From positions 1,376,001 through 1,440,000 of the forward strand of contig CBDANF010000003.1 of NCBI GenBank assembly GCA_965197475.1: a stretch of DNA of 64,000 nucleotides, in the 5' to 3' direction. Position numbers and translations under genes: made by a program. Each line of letters starts with the position of its first letter. Within the stretch, counting starts at the first letter, position 1. This document shows positions 53,924-61,765 of this stretch, piece after piece. The notes below the pieces were generated by a model that saw only the letters and a program-made list of their open reading frames with translations, searched no databases and had not been told where the DNA came from. The stretch comes from Candidatus Poribacteria bacterium (GTDB taxonomy: Bacteria; Poribacteria; WGA-4E; WGA-3G).

Positions 53924-55189
53924 TTACCGACTCTGCTGTTCAATCTGATTGGCTGCGTAATAGATAATGTTTTCAATGAGTGCTTTGTTCACAGAAACCG
54001 TATACTGATTATCGTTTCGGAGACTGGTGATAATGTAAAGTCCTTTTCCATATCGCCGTGCACCGATAACGAGTTCGTTGCGTTCTTGCGAAGTTGCAAA
54101 TACCTTATCGGTTTTTTCCCAATTCGTCCAAGCATCATCAGTATAGATTTTGCCAGATTGAATTTCGTTCGGAGTGGAGAAAAGCGTGTGACCGTTTTGG
54201 GTAGCAACAAAAAATCTATCTGGCGGACTTTCAACGCCTTTCAAATTGCCCTGCAGCCAACCAACTCCGCACGGTTTTTGTAAAGTACTGTCTTGTCCAG
54301 AAACGATAACAATACCACCATTTTTGACGAAGTTTTTAATTTCTTTCTCTGTCTTTGGGGTAAGGAGGTATCTACCGAAACTTGAAATTTCTTCGTATCC
54401 AATCCATAAAATATCGGCTTCCTGTAAGTTCGGGAGCGTACGCATCTTGGTAGATTCATAAGCCATTGGACGTTTCCCAGTCTTTTTAACATTGCGTAAA
54501 GCCTTGTATTCGTAGGTCATTGAGTTGGTATGGACATGGGTTTGTCCCATAGTAGCAGATGTGCTATTTCCGGTTAAAACCAGAATTTTTACAGCGTTTT
54601 TGGCTGCGGTAACCCACATTTTTCCCGCTAACATGTCGCGAACAACTTTTTGGAACGTTTTTGTCTTACCATTAAAGGTGCGCAACATCATCGGATCAAT
54701 GTGAGTGAAACTCCACCATGAACTACTGTTACCTTGATATCCACGCATTTGAAACCATGTGTTGTCAATAAAGCACATACTATCAATACCGTATTGTTCC
54801 CGATAGAATACGATAATTGGCATGCCCTGTTTAAGTAGTCTTACCATCTTTTGCGGTGAGGTGCCCTGTTGATATTGTCCGGTGGCAAAGTTCATTTTAA
54901 TTTCTTTTAGATAACTTTTGCCCTTCACATCTTCATTGACTTTAATAATAGCCTGCAACCTCCCTGCCTTTACTGAATAAACTTCACCAAAAACGATATT
55001 TGTGCAGGCATCAAGGACTTCTCGAATTGTATACTCACGCTCAATGAAGCCAAGCGCGGGTGATGAAGTGAGGAAACCGATAAGAAATAACGAAACAATC
55101 AATGTTGTTAGGAACTGTGTAAAACGCACTGTCAGACCTCCATGTAGATTGACATCTTTGAATTGTATGATTAATAGAAATTTTATCAT
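53924..55189 (-). CDS. Exported hypothetical protein with C-terminal class I glutamine amidotransferase-like fold (tentative)
   Basis: Signal peptide (true start probably GTG near 55130, VRFTQF); EIKNFVKNGGIVIV and YGKGLYII segments. Confidence 0.7.
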   Translation of the reverse strand: MIKFLLIIQFKDVNLHGGLTVRFTQFLTTLIVSLFLIGFLTSSPALGFIEREYTIREVLDACTNIVFGEVYSVKAGRLQAIIKVNEDVKGKSYLKEIKMNFATGQYQQGTSPQKMVRLLKQGMPIIVFYREQYGIDSMCFIDNTWFQMRGYQGNSSSWWSFTHIDPMMLRTFNGKTKTFQKVVRDMLAGKMWVTAAKNAVKILVLTGNSTSATMGQTHVHTNSMTYEYKALRNVKKTGKRPMAYESTKMRTLPNLQEADILWIGYEEISSFGRYLLTPKTEKEIKNFVKNGGIVIVSGQDSTLQKPCGVGWLQGNLKGVESPPDRFFVATQNGHTLFSTPNEIQSGKIYTDDAWTNWEKTDKVFATSQERNELVIGARRYGKGLYIITSLRNDNQYTVSVNKALIENIIYYAANQIEQQSR

Positions 55190-55829: not shown

Positions 55830-58610
55830 TTGCAATTTCAGATAAAAACTATTGGGCACTTACGTTCTCTCTTTACAGATGGACCAGATCCTATCTTCCT
55901 GCTTGGGGCTGGTGCTTCCTACAGTTCAGGTATTCCTCTTGCGGGTGAAATGGTTGAAAAAATAGCAAGATGGGGATACTGTAAGGAAAATAACCTTTCT
56001 ATTGAAGATCCGCGCATACGGCGCAGTGACTGGTATCCGTGGTTAGAAAAACAGAATTGGTATCGGTCAGATTGGGAACGCTCTCAAAATTATCCTTACG
56101 CAATTGAAAACATTCTTCAGCCAAGAGAAGATAGAAGACAATTTTTTCTTGATATCCTGAATACACAAGTGGAACCAGGCGAAGGATATAAATATATGGC
56201 AGAGCTCATGGCGCGTAAACACGTTCGCACCGTTCTTACTACAAACTTTGATAGAATTTTGCAAGAAGTGCACAGAGTAAACCGCAGTATTCATCATGTT
56301 GATATTATCCAAACACCTTCTGAATATAGAAAATTATCCACAAGTCCGCGATATACCCAGATTGTTTACTTACACGGTTCAGTTGAAAATTATAATGACA
56401 AAAATACTTTAGCAGAAACAGCACATCTTGATGAAGGTTTAGTTTCAAGGTTGTTACCACTTTTGAGGGATCATCCTTTGATTGTTATAGGATATCGAGG
56501 CGCGGAAGCTTCCGTAATGAGACATCTTCTCATTGATAACGCTGCGGCTGCAGATGGTTACCGTCATGGGATTTATTGGTGCTCGCGAAATTATATAGAG
56601 GGCGATTCTGACAATCTTCCTTCGTTAGTTCAGGCACTTGCTGGTGAGATCCAAACAAACTTTCAAATTTTTTCTATCAATGGATTTGACGAAGTGATGT
56701 GTACTTTATGGCAGCATGTTCGTCAGCAGAGTACGGATTATCAGCCGCAAATTCCTTCTGTGTCTGAAGAATTATCATTATTTCCTTTTGATTTCCAGAA
56801 ACTTACCGAAGCTGCCTTAGATGATTTTGATTGGCCGACAATGAGAGTTCGGGTGTTTCAGTACTGCGATAGGATGGATATCCGGGTGCCGCCAACTGTC
56901 AACGACGATTGGATTATTCGATTGCTGTGCGATTTAGATCTTGCCTCACCTACTGAAGAAGATAATATTTTTCCAACGGTGGGCGGTTACTTACTTTTTG
57001 CTGCGACTCCGCAGCACTGTATTCGAACCGCCAAAGTTGTCGTACGCATAAATGGGGATCTTGAGTGGATCCAAAACGTATTTGATGTTTCCACCAATCA
57101 AGTAGAACAAAAAATTGAGGGTAACCTTTGGCATCAACTTGACGAGATTTATGCGCTGCTTTCTCGCATTAACCGATCCTTCCTTCTAAAGGAAGGACAA
57201 CACTCAAAATCTGTATATCCCTATCCTCCAGATGCCTTGAGAGAAGTAGTTGTCAACGCACTCGTCCACCGTGACTATAAGAAGGATGAACCAATTGTGA
57301 TTGAAATTGAGCAAAATAGTATCCGTATCCGCAATCCAGGCGGGTTAGTTCAAGACGTTATAGAACAGATGACGGCCACACCTCATAACGAGATAAGAGA
57401 CACGTTTGAAACAAGAATTAAAGGTGGGGGACGGGGTATTCAAGGATATCGGAATCCTGTTGTGTCGGACCTGTTCTATGGCACAGAAGATATGGAAAAA
57501 GCAGGTTCCGGATTACCGGACGTTTGGCAGAAATGCGATGAAAACAAAAATGAGGTGAGTTTTGGACCGATTGATAACAACGCTGCTTTTGAAATAGAAA
57601 TTTCGCGCCGCCCAGAGGCAGTAGATACTATTACTGGAACTGCCTCCAGTAGTAAACACTTCATCCGCTACGCGAGCAATCTTCTTGAAGTAGTTAATCT
57701 ACCGGATGTAGTTTGGCACGCTGGAACTACTGCACGAAAAGCAAAGGATGTATGGGAAAGCACAGAAGCAGATTGGCTGCCTCCATTCATGACTTATGCA
57801 GAAAGGCTTTTTACTTTCGAGAATCTATCAACTTCTGCTAATCCACTTTACACTGCGATTGACACTAACGATATAGGAAAGATAACTATTGAAGAATTTA
57901 TTAACACCTATGATGAGAAGGCCTTTGCCTGGCTACTCAATACATGTTTTTTCAGACACCTTGAAGCACAAGGTCTATTGGTAGACAAAGATCGAAAACG
58001 TGCTTATTTTCCCAAAACAGGCGAAAAATATCGAGAAATCACCTACAAGGCACGTGTCCGCCGTGCTACCCGAAAAGTGGTGAAAAAAAGAAATAATTAT
58101 TGGGAACATAAGTCATTTTGGTTTCGGTTTGAACGCTATGGAAATGTCTGGACCCTACTCTTACTTCCAAGTTATGTTTTTACTACTGATGGAAAAGCAT
58201 CGTATTTGTCTGGTGATTTGGCCAACAAATATTCCACCCGGCTTCAGAGTCACGATTACAACAATGTGGTGCACAACGATCTTGTATTCTGGGCGTGGGT
58301 GCTTTCAGGCGGAAAACATGGTACTTTTGCACTAGACACAGGTGCACCAGAAATAAAATTGGATACGGTTTCAGCAAACAAAATCCATAAAGGCAACGGT
58401 CATCAAATCCTTATTAGAAATAACTTGTCAGCGGTTGTTGCTCCTGTGATGGAATTAGATGAAGCATGGGGAATTGGAGCACTTGAGAAATTGGATACAA
58501 GCGAATTGGCACAGTTAGAGTCAGAAATCTCACAGACGTTTTCGCAATTAGCAGAGGAAGAAGATGTTAATTCAAATGCAAATCAACCAATTACCTACAC
58601 CAGAGATTGA
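55830..58610 (+). CDS. SIR2-like NADase + HATPase_c_4 (RecG-C-terminal-like) + APAZ fusion; short-pAgo effector
   Basis: SIR2: FLLGAGAS..SGIP, LTTNFD, YLHGS, VIGYRG. Middle: YPPDALREVVVNALVHRDY, RNPGGL, YRNPVVSDLF, EKAGSGL. APAZ: SNLLEV..LP, WLLN..F..HL, LLPSYVFTTDG, YNN.VHNDL.FW. Confidence 0.88.
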   Translation: MQFQIKTIGHLRSLFTDGPDPIFLLGAGASYSSGIPLAGEMVEKIARWGYCKENNLSIEDPRIRRSDWYPWLEKQNWYRSDWERSQNYPYAIENILQPREDRRQFFLDILNTQVEPGEGYKYMAELMARKHVRTVLTTNFDRILQEVHRVNRSIHHVDIIQTPSEYRKLSTSPRYTQIVYLHGSVENYNDKNTLAETAHLDEGLVSRLLPLLRDHPLIVIGYRGAEASVMRHLLIDNAAAADGYRHGIYWCSRNYIEGDSDNLPSLVQALAGEIQTNFQIFSINGFDEVMCTLWQHVRQQSTDYQPQIPSVSEELSLFPFDFQKLTEAALDDFDWPTMRVRVFQYCDRMDIRVPPTVNDDWIIRLLCDLDLASPTEEDNIFPTVGGYLLFAATPQHCIRTAKVVVRINGDLEWIQNVFDVSTNQVEQKIEGNLWHQLDEIYALLSRINRSFLLKEGQHSKSVYPYPPDALREVVVNALVHRDYKKDEPIVIEIEQNSIRIRNPGGLVQDVIEQMTATPHNEIRDTFETRIKGGGRGIQGYRNPVVSDLFYGTEDMEKAGSGLPDVWQKCDENKNEVSFGPIDNNAAFEIEISRRPEAVDTITGTASSSKHFIRYASNLLEVVNLPDVVWHAGTTARKAKDVWESTEADWLPPFMTYAERLFTFENLSTSANPLYTAIDTNDIGKITIEEFINTYDEKAFAWLLNTCFFRHLEAQGLLVDKDRKRAYFPKTGEKYREITYKARVRRATRKVVKKRNNYWEHKSFWFRFERYGNVWTLLLLPSYVFTTDGKASYLSGDLANKYSTRLQSHDYNNVVHNDLVFWAWVLSGGKHGTFALDTGAPEIKLDTVSANKIHKGNGHQILIRNNLSAVVAPVMELDEAWGIGALEKLDTSELAQLESEISQTFSQLAEEEDVNSNANQPITYTRD

Positions 58611-60048
58611 ATTTGGTGCCCCAGGTACATTTATAGATCCAAAAGTAGGTCTAATTGAAGCAGGTCCTTTTGACCGACGTTTCGGGGCCGCTCATAAAAG
58701 AGAGGTCCGCGTTGGTTTCGTTGGCAACACAGAAATATTAAATAAAGGCTATAAATGGATTGAAAGGTGTTGCAAAGTAATTCCAACAGAGATTAAAGAC
58801 TCTCCACAATACCAGGATTTTCCTGGTTTTCAAGATATTTTTCACGCTACACTTGAGTTAAGAAACCAGTGGGTAAAAACAATTGACAACAAAAAACTTG
58901 AAAGAGCATTAGCAATAAAGAATTCAAAAAGCCGTTTTGAGGATGTATTGAATCTTTATACCGATGGTATAGATAAGTTGGTCAATTGCACTGAAACTCG
59001 TCCTGACATAGTAATGTGTTGTTTGCCTAATGAGGTCATCCAAACATGTTGGAGCATTTCAAGTAATCTGACTCCTAGACAACTTGAATCCATCAAGAAA
59101 CGTAAGGCTGAGCGTGAGCGTGGGCAACTTTCTTTATTTGAAGACATAGAAGAAACCGAAGAAGACCTGCTGAATCGGAATTTTAGACGGGCATTGAAAG
59201 CACGGACAATGAAATATGAAATGCCAATTCAAATTGGAACTGAGAGATTGTTTGAAGATATGGAAACTAGTCAAGAAGCGGCTACAAGAGCATGGAACAT
59301 GAGTGTGGCACTCTATTACAAAGCGGGAGGAATACCGTGGCGTTTTAAGGTAGACGGACCAGAAACCTGCTTTGTCGGTATCAGTTTTCATCACTTACGA
59401 ACTCCTTCACAACATCTTGTCTATTCAAGTTTAGCACAAGCTTTTTCAAGCCGGGGCGAAGGATTCGCGCTTCGCGGCGAACCTATCCCTAGAGATGAAA
59501 AACAGGGATGGAATGTGCACTTAACAGAGGACCAATCAGCTAAACTAGCAAACAAAGTACTTCAAGAATACAATGAACAGATAGGCGGTAATCCACAACG
59601 TGTTGTACTTCATAAAACATCAAAATTTGACGACTCTGAACAAGATGGGTTCCGACACGGTTTCCGTGACATTCCCATAGTCGAATTAATTAACATTATG
59701 CCGACACAATTTCGGCTATTAACTTATGGAGCATATCCTCCGAGAAGAGGCACCTTGTGTACAGTCAATAAGGAAGCCACATATCTATTCACTACAGGCT
59801 ATATGCCTGAATGGCGGACTTACCCTGGACCTCACATTCCTGCTCCAGTAAGACTAATGAGTAACGATGACGTTGACATGCATCAGGTCGCCTCAGATAT
59901 ATTAGGACTCGCCCGCATGAACTGGAATACTGCAAGCATGAGCAGTTCCCACCCTGTAACGTTATTTTTCTCTCGGCGAGTCGGAGGCATCATGGCGGAG
60001 GTAGGAGAAATTGAAAAACCCCGTCCATCTTTCCGTTATTATATGTAA
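58564..60048 (+). CDS. ago: Short prokaryotic Argonaute (MID-PIWI, catalytically inactive)
   Basis: 494 aa; P.IEFG, GPFD, FPGF, FRRALKA..PIQI, WN..ALYYKAGGIPW, CFVGISF (D>S), VVLHKTS (D lost), YPPRRGT, LARMNWN, PVTL, C-terminal FRYYM. Confidence 0.95.
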   Translation: MLIQMQINQLPTPEIEFGAPGTFIDPKVGLIEAGPFDRRFGAAHKREVRVGFVGNTEILNKGYKWIERCCKVIPTEIKDSPQYQDFPGFQDIFHATLELRNQWVKTIDNKKLERALAIKNSKSRFEDVLNLYTDGIDKLVNCTETRPDIVMCCLPNEVIQTCWSISSNLTPRQLESIKKRKAERERGQLSLFEDIEETEEDLLNRNFRRALKARTMKYEMPIQIGTERLFEDMETSQEAATRAWNMSVALYYKAGGIPWRFKVDGPETCFVGISFHHLRTPSQHLVYSSLAQAFSSRGEGFALRGEPIPRDEKQGWNVHLTEDQSAKLANKVLQEYNEQIGGNPQRVVLHKTSKFDDSEQDGFRHGFRDIPIVELINIMPTQFRLLTYGAYPPRRGTLCTVNKEATYLFTTGYMPEWRTYPGPHIPAPVRLMSNDDVDMHQVASDILGLARMNWNTASMSSSHPVTLFFSRRVGGIMAEVGEIEKPRPSFRYYM

Positions 60049-60154: not shown

Positions 60155-61765
60155 ATGCCCACACTTGACTTCAAAGGCAAACAATTCATATACGCACACC
60201 ACCTCACCGTCCCCTTCCGCAAACCGGAAATAGACGCAGAAAAATCCCTCACAGGCGAAAAACCTCCATCATTAGACGATAACCTCATTATTCACGGTGA
60301 CAACCTACATGCCTTAAAAGCACTCCTCCCCGTATACGCTGGCAAAATCAAGTGTATCTATATTGACCCGCCTTACAACACTGGCAACGAAAATTGGGTT
60401 TACAATGATAACGTCAATAGTCCGATGATGAGAACGTGGCTTGAGAAAAACAGTCCGATTGATATTGAAGATTTGGAACGGCACGATAAGTGGTTGTGTA
60501 TGATGTGGCCTCGGTTACACTTATTGCGTGAGTTGCTATCCGATGATGGCGTAATTTTCATCTCAATTGATGATAATGAACAGCATCGTTTGCGGATGTT
60601 AATGGATGAGATTTTTGGAGCAGAAAATTTTGTAACTAACATAATTTGGCAGAAAAAATTTAGTCCGCAAAATGATGCCAAGTATTTTTCCGATAATCAT
60701 GATTTTGTGGTTTGTTACGCAAAGGATAAAGAAACATGGCGGCCGGTTCTTCTACCTCGAACTGAAAAGCACAACAAGCGATATTCTAATCCTGACAACG
60801 ACCCGCGGGGACCTTGGAGTTCAAGTGGATTAGATGTAAAAACCTATCAAGAAGAATATGACTATCCGATCACTACTCCATCAGGACGAATTGTTAATCC
60901 TCCAACAAGTAGGTGCTGGAGGTGCAGCAAAGAGAAATTTGATGAACTTATTAATGACAATAGGATATGGTTTGGTGAAGAGGGTAATAATGTCCCTCGC
61001 GTAAAGCGTTTTCTATCAGAAGTTAAACAAGGCATCACACCTTTAACTGTATGGTTATATGAAGATGTTGGACATACTCAGAGTGCAACACAAGGACTTA
61101 ATAAAATTGGTGTTGCATTTTCAAACCCAAAACCACATACATTGATAGAACGCATATTACAAATTGGTACTGACCCCGATTCAATTATTCTGGACTCCTT
61201 CGCGGGCAGCGGCACCACTGCCCATGCTGTGCTTGCACTCAACAAAGCGGATGGCGGTAACCGAAAGTTTATCCTCGTTGAATGCGAAGATTACGCTGAC
61301 GACATCACCGCCGAACGCGTCCGCCGCGTCATAAATGGCATTGAAAATGCCAAAGATGAAAACTTGCAAAAAGGACTCGGTGGTTCCTTCACCTACTGCA
61401 CACTCGGTGAAACGATTGACACTGAGGGAATGCTTACTGGCGACTCACTTCCCACATACCAAACCTTAGCGAACTATGTTGCTTATACGGCTACCGGCAG
61501 TAATTTGCAGGTCAAAGCAAAGCAGAAAAATTATTGCTTCGGTGAAACAAAGGATATCCGCTTCTATCTCATCTATGAACCGACACTTGAATTTTTAGAG
61601 AGCAACAAGTCCGCTTTAGATGCGAAACGCGCTGAGCAGATAGCTGAGGAATGCAAAGCGACAGGCAAAAAAGCCTACGTCTATGCGTCTCATAAGTTTA
61701 TGAGCCAGAAAGAACTTACACCGATGGGTATTACCTTCTGCCAACTCCCCTACAGCATCTATTAA
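60155..61765 (+). CDS. mod: Type III R-M adenine methyltransferase (Mod)
   Basis: IHGDNLHALKAL, YIDPPYNTG, FISIDDNE, NPKP, LDSFAGSGTTAHAVL (beta-class order). Confidence 0.95.
   Translation: MPTLDFKGKQFIYAHHLTVPFRKPEIDAEKSLTGEKPPSLDDNLIIHGDNLHALKALLPVYAGKIKCIYIDPPYNTGNENWVYNDNVNSPMMRTWLEKNSPIDIEDLERHDKWLCMMWPRLHLLRELLSDDGVIFISIDDNEQHRLRMLMDEIFGAENFVTNIIWQKKFSPQNDAKYFSDNHDFVVCYAKDKETWRPVLLPRTEKHNKRYSNPDNDPRGPWSSSGLDVKTYQEEYDYPITTPSGRIVNPPTSRCWRCSKEKFDELINDNRIWFGEEGNNVPRVKRFLSEVKQGITPLTVWLYEDVGHTQSATQGLNKIGVAFSNPKPHTLIERILQIGTDPDSIILDSFAGSGTTAHAVLALNKADGGNRKFILVECEDYADDITAERVRRVINGIENAKDENLQKGLGGSFTYCTLGETIDTEGMLTGDSLPTYQTLANYVAYTATGSNLQVKAKQKNYCFGETKDIRFYLIYEPTLEFLESNKSALDAKRAEQIAEECKATGKKAYVYASHKFMSQKELTPMGITFCQLPYSIY

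Follow-up and report, generated by a model that had tools for sequence, protein, structure and literature searches.

Genetic organization of the short Argonaute system

The 64,000-nucleotide stretch of contig CBDANF010000003.1 from a Candidatus Poribacteria bacterium, which is referred to here at its full length as the window, carries on its + strand a two-gene short prokaryotic Argonaute (pAgo) system, with the SIR2-APAZ gene first and the pAgo gene second. This study concerns a pentapeptide of the pAgo, QLSLF, which is a candidate binding motif for the sliding beta clamp DnaN. The two genes of the system are as follows.

55830..58610, + strand: partner gene, encoding a SIR2 / HATPase_c_4 / APAZ protein of 926 amino acids (aa) (Pfam, PADLOC, and PDB matches)
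58564..60048, + strand: short pAgo (MID-PIWI), 494 aa (open reading frame [ORF], PADLOC pAgo_I, AlphaFold2 [AF2], and Foldseek)

The 3' end of the partner gene overlaps the start of the pAgo gene by 47 nt. The 494-aa protein matched the PADLOC pAgo_I profile end to end (residues 5 to 494) with an E value of 3e-150. Because this match begins at residue 5, the true start of the pAgo may be Met5, as judged from the sequence, in which case residue numbers would shift by 4. The AF2 model of the pAgo reached a mean predicted local distance difference test (pLDDT) score of 90.7 and was aligned by Foldseek with the solved Agos of SPARDA, SPARTA, and SPARHA at template modeling (TM) scores of 0.79 to 0.86. 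As is characteristic of a short pAgo, the protein matched MID-PIWI only, and the adjoining gene encodes an APAZ-domain effector. The named close homologs of the pAgo belong to Candidatus Poribacteria.

In the partner protein, Pfam SIR2_2 was matched at residues 134 to 256 (4.7e-09) and HATPase_c_4 at residues 487 to 573, and the PADLOC model Aga_SIR2-PNTD1-PNTD2 covered residues 9 to 912 with an E value of 0. Residues 22 to 301 matched GsSir2 chains, the SIR2 part scoring 2.2e-14 against 8jkz_A, and the C-terminal APAZ region matched PDB 9om4_A as well as PADLOC PNTD1-PNTD2 models. By sequence, the partner is therefore of the SPARSA type, that is, an APAZ protein with an N-terminal SIR2 domain that is a predicted NADase. 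Residues ~377 to 573 form an extra middle module with matches to HATPase_c_4, PDB 3lmm_A, and a PADLOC pAgo model (377 to 509). The solved GsSir2 lacks it.

A candidate clamp-binding motif in a variable MID insertion

The motif and its surroundings in the pAgo are listed below.

59050..59181, + strand: variable MID insertion, residues 163 to 206 (unaligned or absent in 9om4_B; variable in homologs)
59074..59124, + strand: basic helix, residues 171 to 187, which includes IKKRKAERERG (177 to 187) (DSSP on the AF2 model)
59125..59139, + strand: QLSLF, residues 188 to 192, candidate beta clamp-binding motif (sequence, conservation, pLDDT, and predicted docking)
59140..59166, + strand: acidic stretch EDIEETEED, residues 193 to 201 (sequence)
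59179..59202, + strand: conserved MID helix NFRRALKA, residues 206 to 213 (K212 invariant in 122/122 rows of the alignment described below)

A first-pass annotation, made from the DNA letters alone, had placed QLSLF at residues 188 to 192 between IKKRKAERERG and EDIEETEED, just ahead of NFRRALKA; translation from position 58564 reproduced this arrangement exactly. K212 is presumably part of the guide 5'-end pocket. The closest solved homolog, 9om4_B, aligned to residues 11 to 161 and 198 to 494 of the query only; at the sequence level, the QLSLF segment is an insertion, and 58 of 121 representatives sharing ≤50% identity lacked this insertion or had a short one. Across homologs, the sequence of the basic helix is variable and its basic character is kept. 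As defined in PMC11139829, a clamp-binding motif reads either Q-phi-x-[L/M]-[F/L] or else Q-phi-x-[L/M]-x-[F/L], and QLxLF is the form that binds most strongly. QLSLF is an exact fit to this published high-affinity consensus.

In the same genome, 5503 ORFs have a length of ≥120 aa; among them, exact QL[SD]LF occurred 7 times, compared with 3.2 occurrences expected. One exact match taken alone is thus weak evidence, and the first-pass annotation had likewise cautioned that a five-residue match may arise by chance and that conservation would be decisive. We therefore turn to homologs. In an alignment of 122 rows spanning 28 to 94% identity, the consensus of the insertion was blank save for Q-x-x-L-F. 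The column counts at the motif were 86/109 for Q, 53/102 for L or M at position 2, 86/102 for L, and 71/101 for F, and the commonest residue of the flanking loop columns was found in only 14 to 36 rows. By sequence comparison, conservation within the variable MID insertion of ~45 residues is confined to Q, L, and F. Directly after the motif, position 193 was D or E in 61 of 81 rows, and columns 196 to 201 were rich in E.

Shuffled insertions served as a control, with rows shorter than 430 aa left out of the counts. The pattern Q..[LMIF]F was present in the insertions of 89 of 115 close homologs versus 1.8% of shuffled insertions, and in those of 30 of 121 distant representatives versus 1.0% after shuffling. 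Hexamer forms (QLLLPF, QLSLPF, QLSLSF, and others), which fit the second published motif class, were found in 9 further close homologs. The test that had been proposed, conservation of the motif against its variable flanks, came out in its favor, and conservation lifts the motif above chance. A chance match was rejected on the column conservation together with the shuffle controls. The earlier wording, which spoke of short pAgos in general, stands for insertion-bearing relatives; about half of the distant relatives have no insertion, and one subclade has lost the motif.

In the same genome, QLSLF was also found elsewhere. Two AlkB-like 2OG-Fe(II) oxygenases, putative DNA repair enzymes (C3:2348612-2349259 and C3:2350367-2351005; L158 and L159), start with MEQLSLF and so carry an exact N-terminal match to the clamp motif; the pentapeptide further occurs in a ResIII helicase (L156) and a TPR protein (L160).

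Exposure of the loop

Residues 188 to 196 were the sole segment of the pAgo model with a pLDDT below 50. Block pLDDT values fell from 73 to 60 and 50 across residues 171 to 200, where the helix of residues 171 to 187 precedes the low-pLDDT stretch, and the motif was unpacked from the pAgo body. In the AF2 model, the motif is thus located in an exposed, flexible segment, as had been presumed for a clamp-binding peptide. A buried structural element, which was considered as a candidate role, was rejected on AF2 confidence together with the literature on SPARTA.

In SPARTA structures, as reported in PMC10474274, a stretch of the MID domain was untraceable, and deletion of residues 171 to 200 had little effect on NADase activity in vitro. 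Residues 171 to 200 of the SPARTA Ago (507 aa) include TPTLF, which was aligned to LSLF; this position comes from a residue count on the HMMER alignment of 8ifk_B, assuming the same numbering as in the protein of PMC10474274. By our own count on the sequence, SPARTA residues 171 to 200 are the stretch homologous to the insertion. Solved SPARTA Ago chains mostly comprise 409 to 474 modeled residues of 507. Since the stretch is untraceable and its deletion is tolerated, the equivalent loop of SPARTA appears to form no fixed interface with APAZ, and activation by guide and target in vitro appears not to require it. Dispensability in vitro is what would be expected of a localization motif.

Predicted docking to the host clamp

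Outside the window, the host genome encodes two tandem dnaN paralogs of 372 and 367 aa that are ~76% identical (C3:724399-726851; L001 and L002). The 372-aa DnaN ends in MPMRL plus a short tail, and the second copy ends in APMRL. The host 372-aa DnaN was modeled in complex with pAgo residues 166 to 202 in three runs. The runs yielded ipSAE values of 0.64, 0.68, and 0.66 versus 0.02 for the best control, with contact agreement of at least 94% and partner pLDDT of at least 68. Of 80 solved complexes, 58 reach the pass mark applied to ipSAE, as do 2 of 110 mismatched pairs. Modeling of the complex with DnaN had been suggested by the first-pass annotation, and it returned the predicted docking at 0.64 to 0.68.

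Residues 186 to 192 of the pAgo contacted DnaN residues 170 to 175, 240 to 245, 318, 342 to 344, and 358 to 363, and several residues of the basic helix (171 to 187) also touched DnaN. Numbering of the host DnaN is offset by 2 from that of Escherichia coli beta, and with this offset the contacts correspond to residues of the E. coli cleft. The predicted docking site in the model is the canonical DnaN cleft.

Multiple dnaN copies were seen in relatives of the host as well. Within the same genus, 33 of the 36 other genomes sampled had two to four dnaN matches; in other families of the order, 23 of 24 sampled genomes had a single one.

Effector types of motif-bearing pAgos

SIR2-HATPase_c_4-APAZ partners accompany the motif-bearing pAgos of the window and of loci L003-L054. 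TIR-APAZ partners were found with bacterial pAgos that bear the clamp-binding motif and with archaeal pAgos that bear a motif similar to a PIP box (PIP, PCNA-interacting protein), and a Schlafen-APAZ partner was found with a motif-bearing pAgo of Methanoperedens. Because the motif occurs with SIR2-, TIR-, and Schlafen-APAZ partners, an effector-specific docking site is unlikely; a docking site specific to a SIR2 or HATPase_c_4 partner was rejected on its co-occurrence with the TIR-APAZ and Schlafen-APAZ partners. From sequence, the best explanation is that the motif belongs to the pAgo sensor rather than to any particular effector. In the insertion-less clade, the one partner scanned against Pfam (L066) was a SMEK-APAZ protein. 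A search of APAZ partners of insertion-less pAgos for a compensating clamp-binding motif gave nothing consistent, with one anecdotal C-terminal QTPLF (L081).

Several partners showed further features. The SIR2-HATPase_c_4-APAZ partner of L011 has a PNP_UDP_1 domain added at its N terminus, and the bacterial TIR-APAZ partner of a clamp-motif pAgo at L065:3067-4914 has an N-terminal helix-turn-helix (HTH_31, HTH_19, and HTH_3). An archaeal TIR-APAZ partner (L055:3517-4938) ends in a long acidic tail that resembles the autoinhibitory C-terminal tail of SPARTA.

Comparison of bacterial and archaeal motifs

To compare the two domains of life, 105 rows were retained from 80 named loci and from searches of three archaeal phyla, with 401 genomes per phylum, of which 13, 16, and 6 gave hits. 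The rows dropped were a 74-aa fragment (L049), three that represented the same genes as L055, L067, and L080 (L087, L103, and L124, respectively), and those of pseudogenes, fragments, and PIWI-only matches (L092, L094, L096-L101, L117, and L123). Rows shorter than 380 aa were left out of trees.

With the definitions from the literature, 40 of the 61 insertion-bearing bacterial rows had the clamp-binding motif and none had a PIP pattern alone, while 1 of 18 archaeal rows had the clamp-binding motif and 12 of 18 had only Q..[LMIV]..[FWY]. Loose patterns assigned 50 of 62 bacterial rows to the clamp-binding class, 3 to the PIP-only class, and 9 to neither; the corresponding numbers for the 18 archaeal rows were 2, 12, and 4. 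These regular-expression classes are crude; "QGQLF" in QLFLW rows, for instance, is a register-shifted match that was placed in the clamp-binding class. Three of the four remaining archaeal rows were PIP-like without Gln (HRPLDTFF, NKFLDEW, and NRTLTELL).

Examples of archaeal motifs are QTFLDNF (Nitrosarchaeum), QVFLDNF (Bathyarchaeota), QSFLSRW (Methanoperedens), and QKTLGEW (Thermoplasmata). In the four genomes checked, those of these PIP-like examples, PCNA was present and no DnaN hit was obtained. In bacterial and archaeal rows alike, a Gly-Gln that opens the motif follows the basic helix, and the motif therefore looks remodeled in place. By sequence, it appears to have been retuned to PCNA-type spacing in archaeal lineages. 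In a quick IQ-TREE tree, one clade of 19 rows, with a Shimodaira-Hasegawa-like approximate likelihood ratio test (SH-aLRT) value of 94, contained two bacterial clamp-motif subclades intermingled with PIP-like rows from archaea. The partners checked in this mixed clade (8 rows) were TIR proteins.

Proposed role in clamp docking

Taking these results together, we consider that QLSLF is probably a functional short linear motif that docks the pAgo/SIR2-APAZ complex into the hydrophobic DnaN cleft. The presence of the motif, its conservation, the domain-specific spacing, the predicted disorder and exposure, and the predicted canonical docking are the grounds from which we infer binding and fork targeting. 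In the proposed mechanism, the motif in the flexible MID loop would dock the guide-loaded complex onto DNA-loaded beta clamps. Clamps are expected to accumulate on actively replicating DNA, and the tether would therefore concentrate the RNA-guided sensor where invader DNA is single stranded, at replication forks and lagging-strand gaps of plasmids or phages. Guide-target pairing at these sites would then activate the SIR2 NADase, and the infection would be aborted. The clamp interpretation of the first-pass annotation is supported by this in silico work, in which the motif was found to be conserved among insertion-bearing homologs, unburied, and predicted to dock in the clamp cleft.

More tentatively, a large clade of bacterial and archaeal short pAgos with SIR2-, TIR-, and Schlafen-APAZ partners may be recruited to the replisome through a clamp-binding MID-loop motif that is rewritten between beta clamp type and PCNA type when domains are crossed, with clamp density helping to tell invaders from the chromosome and to reach single-stranded targets. 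We regard this broader picture as plausible and hold it with some doubt.

A number of observations weigh against these proposals. The evidence for docking consists of prediction and sequence comparison. As many clamp-peptide complexes have been solved, the docking pass may stem from the memory of the model and shows likeness, not binding; docking is in any case to be expected of a peptide that matches the consensus exactly. Among close homologs, 14 of 115 retain the insertion and have no motif, and the strict clamp-motif definitions exclude 21 of 61 bacterial rows. In the AF2 model of the archaeal pAgo from Nitrosarchaeum (mean pLDDT, 89.8), the motif at residues 207 to 213 forms a loop entering a helix with block pLDDT values of 81 and 75, which is not clearly disordered.

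The points against retuning in archaea concern both the motif itself and the statistics. The canonical PIP box with two aromatic residues (Q-x-x-[LMIV]-x-x-aromatic-aromatic) was found in 0 of 18 archaeal rows, and the PIP pattern was relaxed to one aromatic residue after the data were seen; at the sequence level, the archaeal motifs are PIP-like and noncanonical, agreeing with the box over its first seven positions in 12 of 18 rows. FEN1 C termini from the same archaeal genomes keep a hydrophobic position 8 (SHNLDQWF, KKTLESFF, QQTLDRWF, and QKSLDQWF). Every archaeal PIP box that has a solved structure lies at a C terminus (PMC6881253), unlike the motifs of the archaeal pAgos, which are internal. 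Two archaeal rows, L090 (QIDLF) and L056 (QTTLF), are exceptions to the PIP-like form. The association between motif and domain of life gave Fisher P values of 5e-6 and 4e-10 in tests that ignore relatedness. A FastTree tree built without the insertion columns gave 3 independent contrasts between bacteria and archaea on starred branches and 4 on all branches; PIP spacing changed in the predicted way in 2.2 of them on average and in the opposite way in 0, and 3 to 4 contrasts, the number left once the relatedness of rows is allowed for, are too few for a sign test. The quick IQ-TREE tree is in agreement with this one.

A last point of this kind is the pAgo of L071, which is nested among Methanoperedens-type archaeal pAgos and has a PIP-like QKFLTEW. 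It lies on a 2498-base contig in a 0.5-Mb bin titled "bacterium." No DnaN, PCNA, or L31e was found in this bin, and a bacterial L35p match was weak (27.6 bits versus a cutoff of 28.9). Either the contig is misbinned or the gene is a recent archaea-to-bacteria transfer whose motif is still unrewritten.

Alternative explanations

The motif could serve the complex itself, as an autoinhibitory plug, a nucleic acid mimic, or a docking or oligomerization element on APAZ, PIWI, or a neighboring protomer, with no clamp involved. The acidic run conserved directly behind the motif would suit such a role, as would the position of the insertion immediately before the conserved MID helix. As reported in PMC10899771, the acidic C-terminal tail of the SPARTA TIR-APAZ protein plugs the nucleic acid channel, and since every partner type has APAZ, they could share one docking site. 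However, the motif is not packed against the pAgo in the AF2 model, and the MID stretch of SPARTA that is homologous by our count was untraceable and could be deleted (171 to 200) with hardly any change in NADase activity in vitro, according to PMC10474274. A role inside the complex also leaves unexplained why it is in archaeal hosts, specifically, that the aromatic residue moves from position 5 to 7. We consider this explanation unlikely.

The binding partner could instead be another hub protein of the host, such as a recombination, transcription, or SSB-related factor, that likewise is not the same in Bacteria as in Archaea. Short hydrophobic-acidic motifs are promiscuous, and the archaeal motifs are not canonical PIP boxes. 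Yet the bacterial form is exactly the published clamp motif in its 5-mer and 6-mer variants alike, docking was predicted in the canonical cleft with high self-consistency, and no result points to any alternative partner, which makes this explanation quite improbable. That QLSLF is a lineage-conserved remnant without present function, or a chance match, is very improbable despite the genome-wide frequency of QL[SD]LF and the loss of the motif in some close homologs, given that it is kept down to ~30% identity in many bacterial phyla and with three effector types while adjoining loop positions vary, at an enrichment of ~50-fold or more over shuffled insertions. Docking into the DnaN cleft remains the reading that we favor.

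Neighboring genes

The following genes lie downstream of the pAgo system.

60155..61765, + strand: type III restriction-modification methyltransferase, a neighboring defense gene outside the pAgo system (Pfam N6_N4_Mtase, 1.9e-41; PADLOC MTase_III, 6e-190)
from 61784, running beyond the end of the window: res-type helicase of the type III restriction-modification pair, downstream of the methyltransferase

With this restriction-modification pair directly downstream, the pAgo system is located in a defense island. Upstream of the system, a 421-aa ORF (53924-55189, - strand) had no Pfam match.

Relation to known systems

The system resembles SPARSA (GsSir2/Ago; PDB 8in8 and 8jkz) in its operon, in which a SIR2-APAZ gene is followed by a MID-PIWI pAgo gene, and in its pAgo, which matched 8in8_C at 5e-21. 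Unlike in SPARSA, the partner here has 926 aa with the extra HATPase_c_4 middle domain. The SPARSA GsAgo aligns only from query residue 210 onward, and the insertion is therefore not covered by this alignment. With SPARTA (TIR-APAZ / short pAgo; Crt, Map, and Bab), the system shares the pAgo fold (TM, ~0.8), and TIR-APAZ partners were also found with the motif-bearing pAgos compared here. The untraceable, deletion-tolerant MID stretch of SPARTA (PMC10474274) is a further likeness, its equivalence to the insertion resting on our residue count, whereas the solved SPARTA Ago reads TPTLF, without Gln.

Clients of the beta clamp that bear a clamp-binding motif include Pol II/IV/V, Hda, MutS/MutL, IS transposases, RecBCD, and Tn7 TnsE, and the SocB toxin is reportedly a client as well. 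The pAgo is like these clients in having Q-phi-x-[L/M]-[F/L] in a flexible region, and the same cleft is predicted to be bound. It differs in being an RNA-guided abortive-infection sensor and not a replication, repair, or transposition enzyme. Compared with PIP-box clients of PCNA (FEN1 and others), the archaeal homologs have, at the same loop site, Q at position 1, with position 4 aliphatic and position 7 aromatic, but at position 8 they carry K, E, G, D, or S instead of an aromatic or hydrophobic residue, and the motif is internal.

A full-text literature search, with most subscription journals outside its coverage, turned up no paper that connects pAgos with either the beta clamp or PCNA, co-mentions being unrelated, and no description of a defense system with a clamp-binding motif. 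The suggestion of the first-pass annotation that such targeting is undescribed for short pAgos agrees with this outcome. The type of system and the type of motif are known; as far as we found, what is new is that the two occur together, how widely they do so, and that the motif is rewritten by domain of life.

Short pAgo systems require a DNA target that is single stranded, and the elements to which they respond are multicopy and replicating. The SPARTA authors state that whether the replication rate aids activation through target accessibility remains to be determined (PMC9097488), and a preprint describes plasmid interference by GsSir2/Ago as dependent on the replication origin (bioRxiv 10.1101/2021.12.14.472599). 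A clamp tether fits these open points of the literature.

If the proposed docking is true, the clamp tether would be a concrete answer, testable by mutation, to the question of how short pAgos reach invader DNA and spare the chromosome. It would also assign a function to a loop that is structurally invisible and dispensable in vitro. We know of no earlier prokaryotic immune sensor that uses the sliding clamp as a platform. The switch from a clamp-binding to a PIP-like motif would, if true, represent a natural experiment on how a defense system adapts to the replication machinery of a new host after horizontal transfer.

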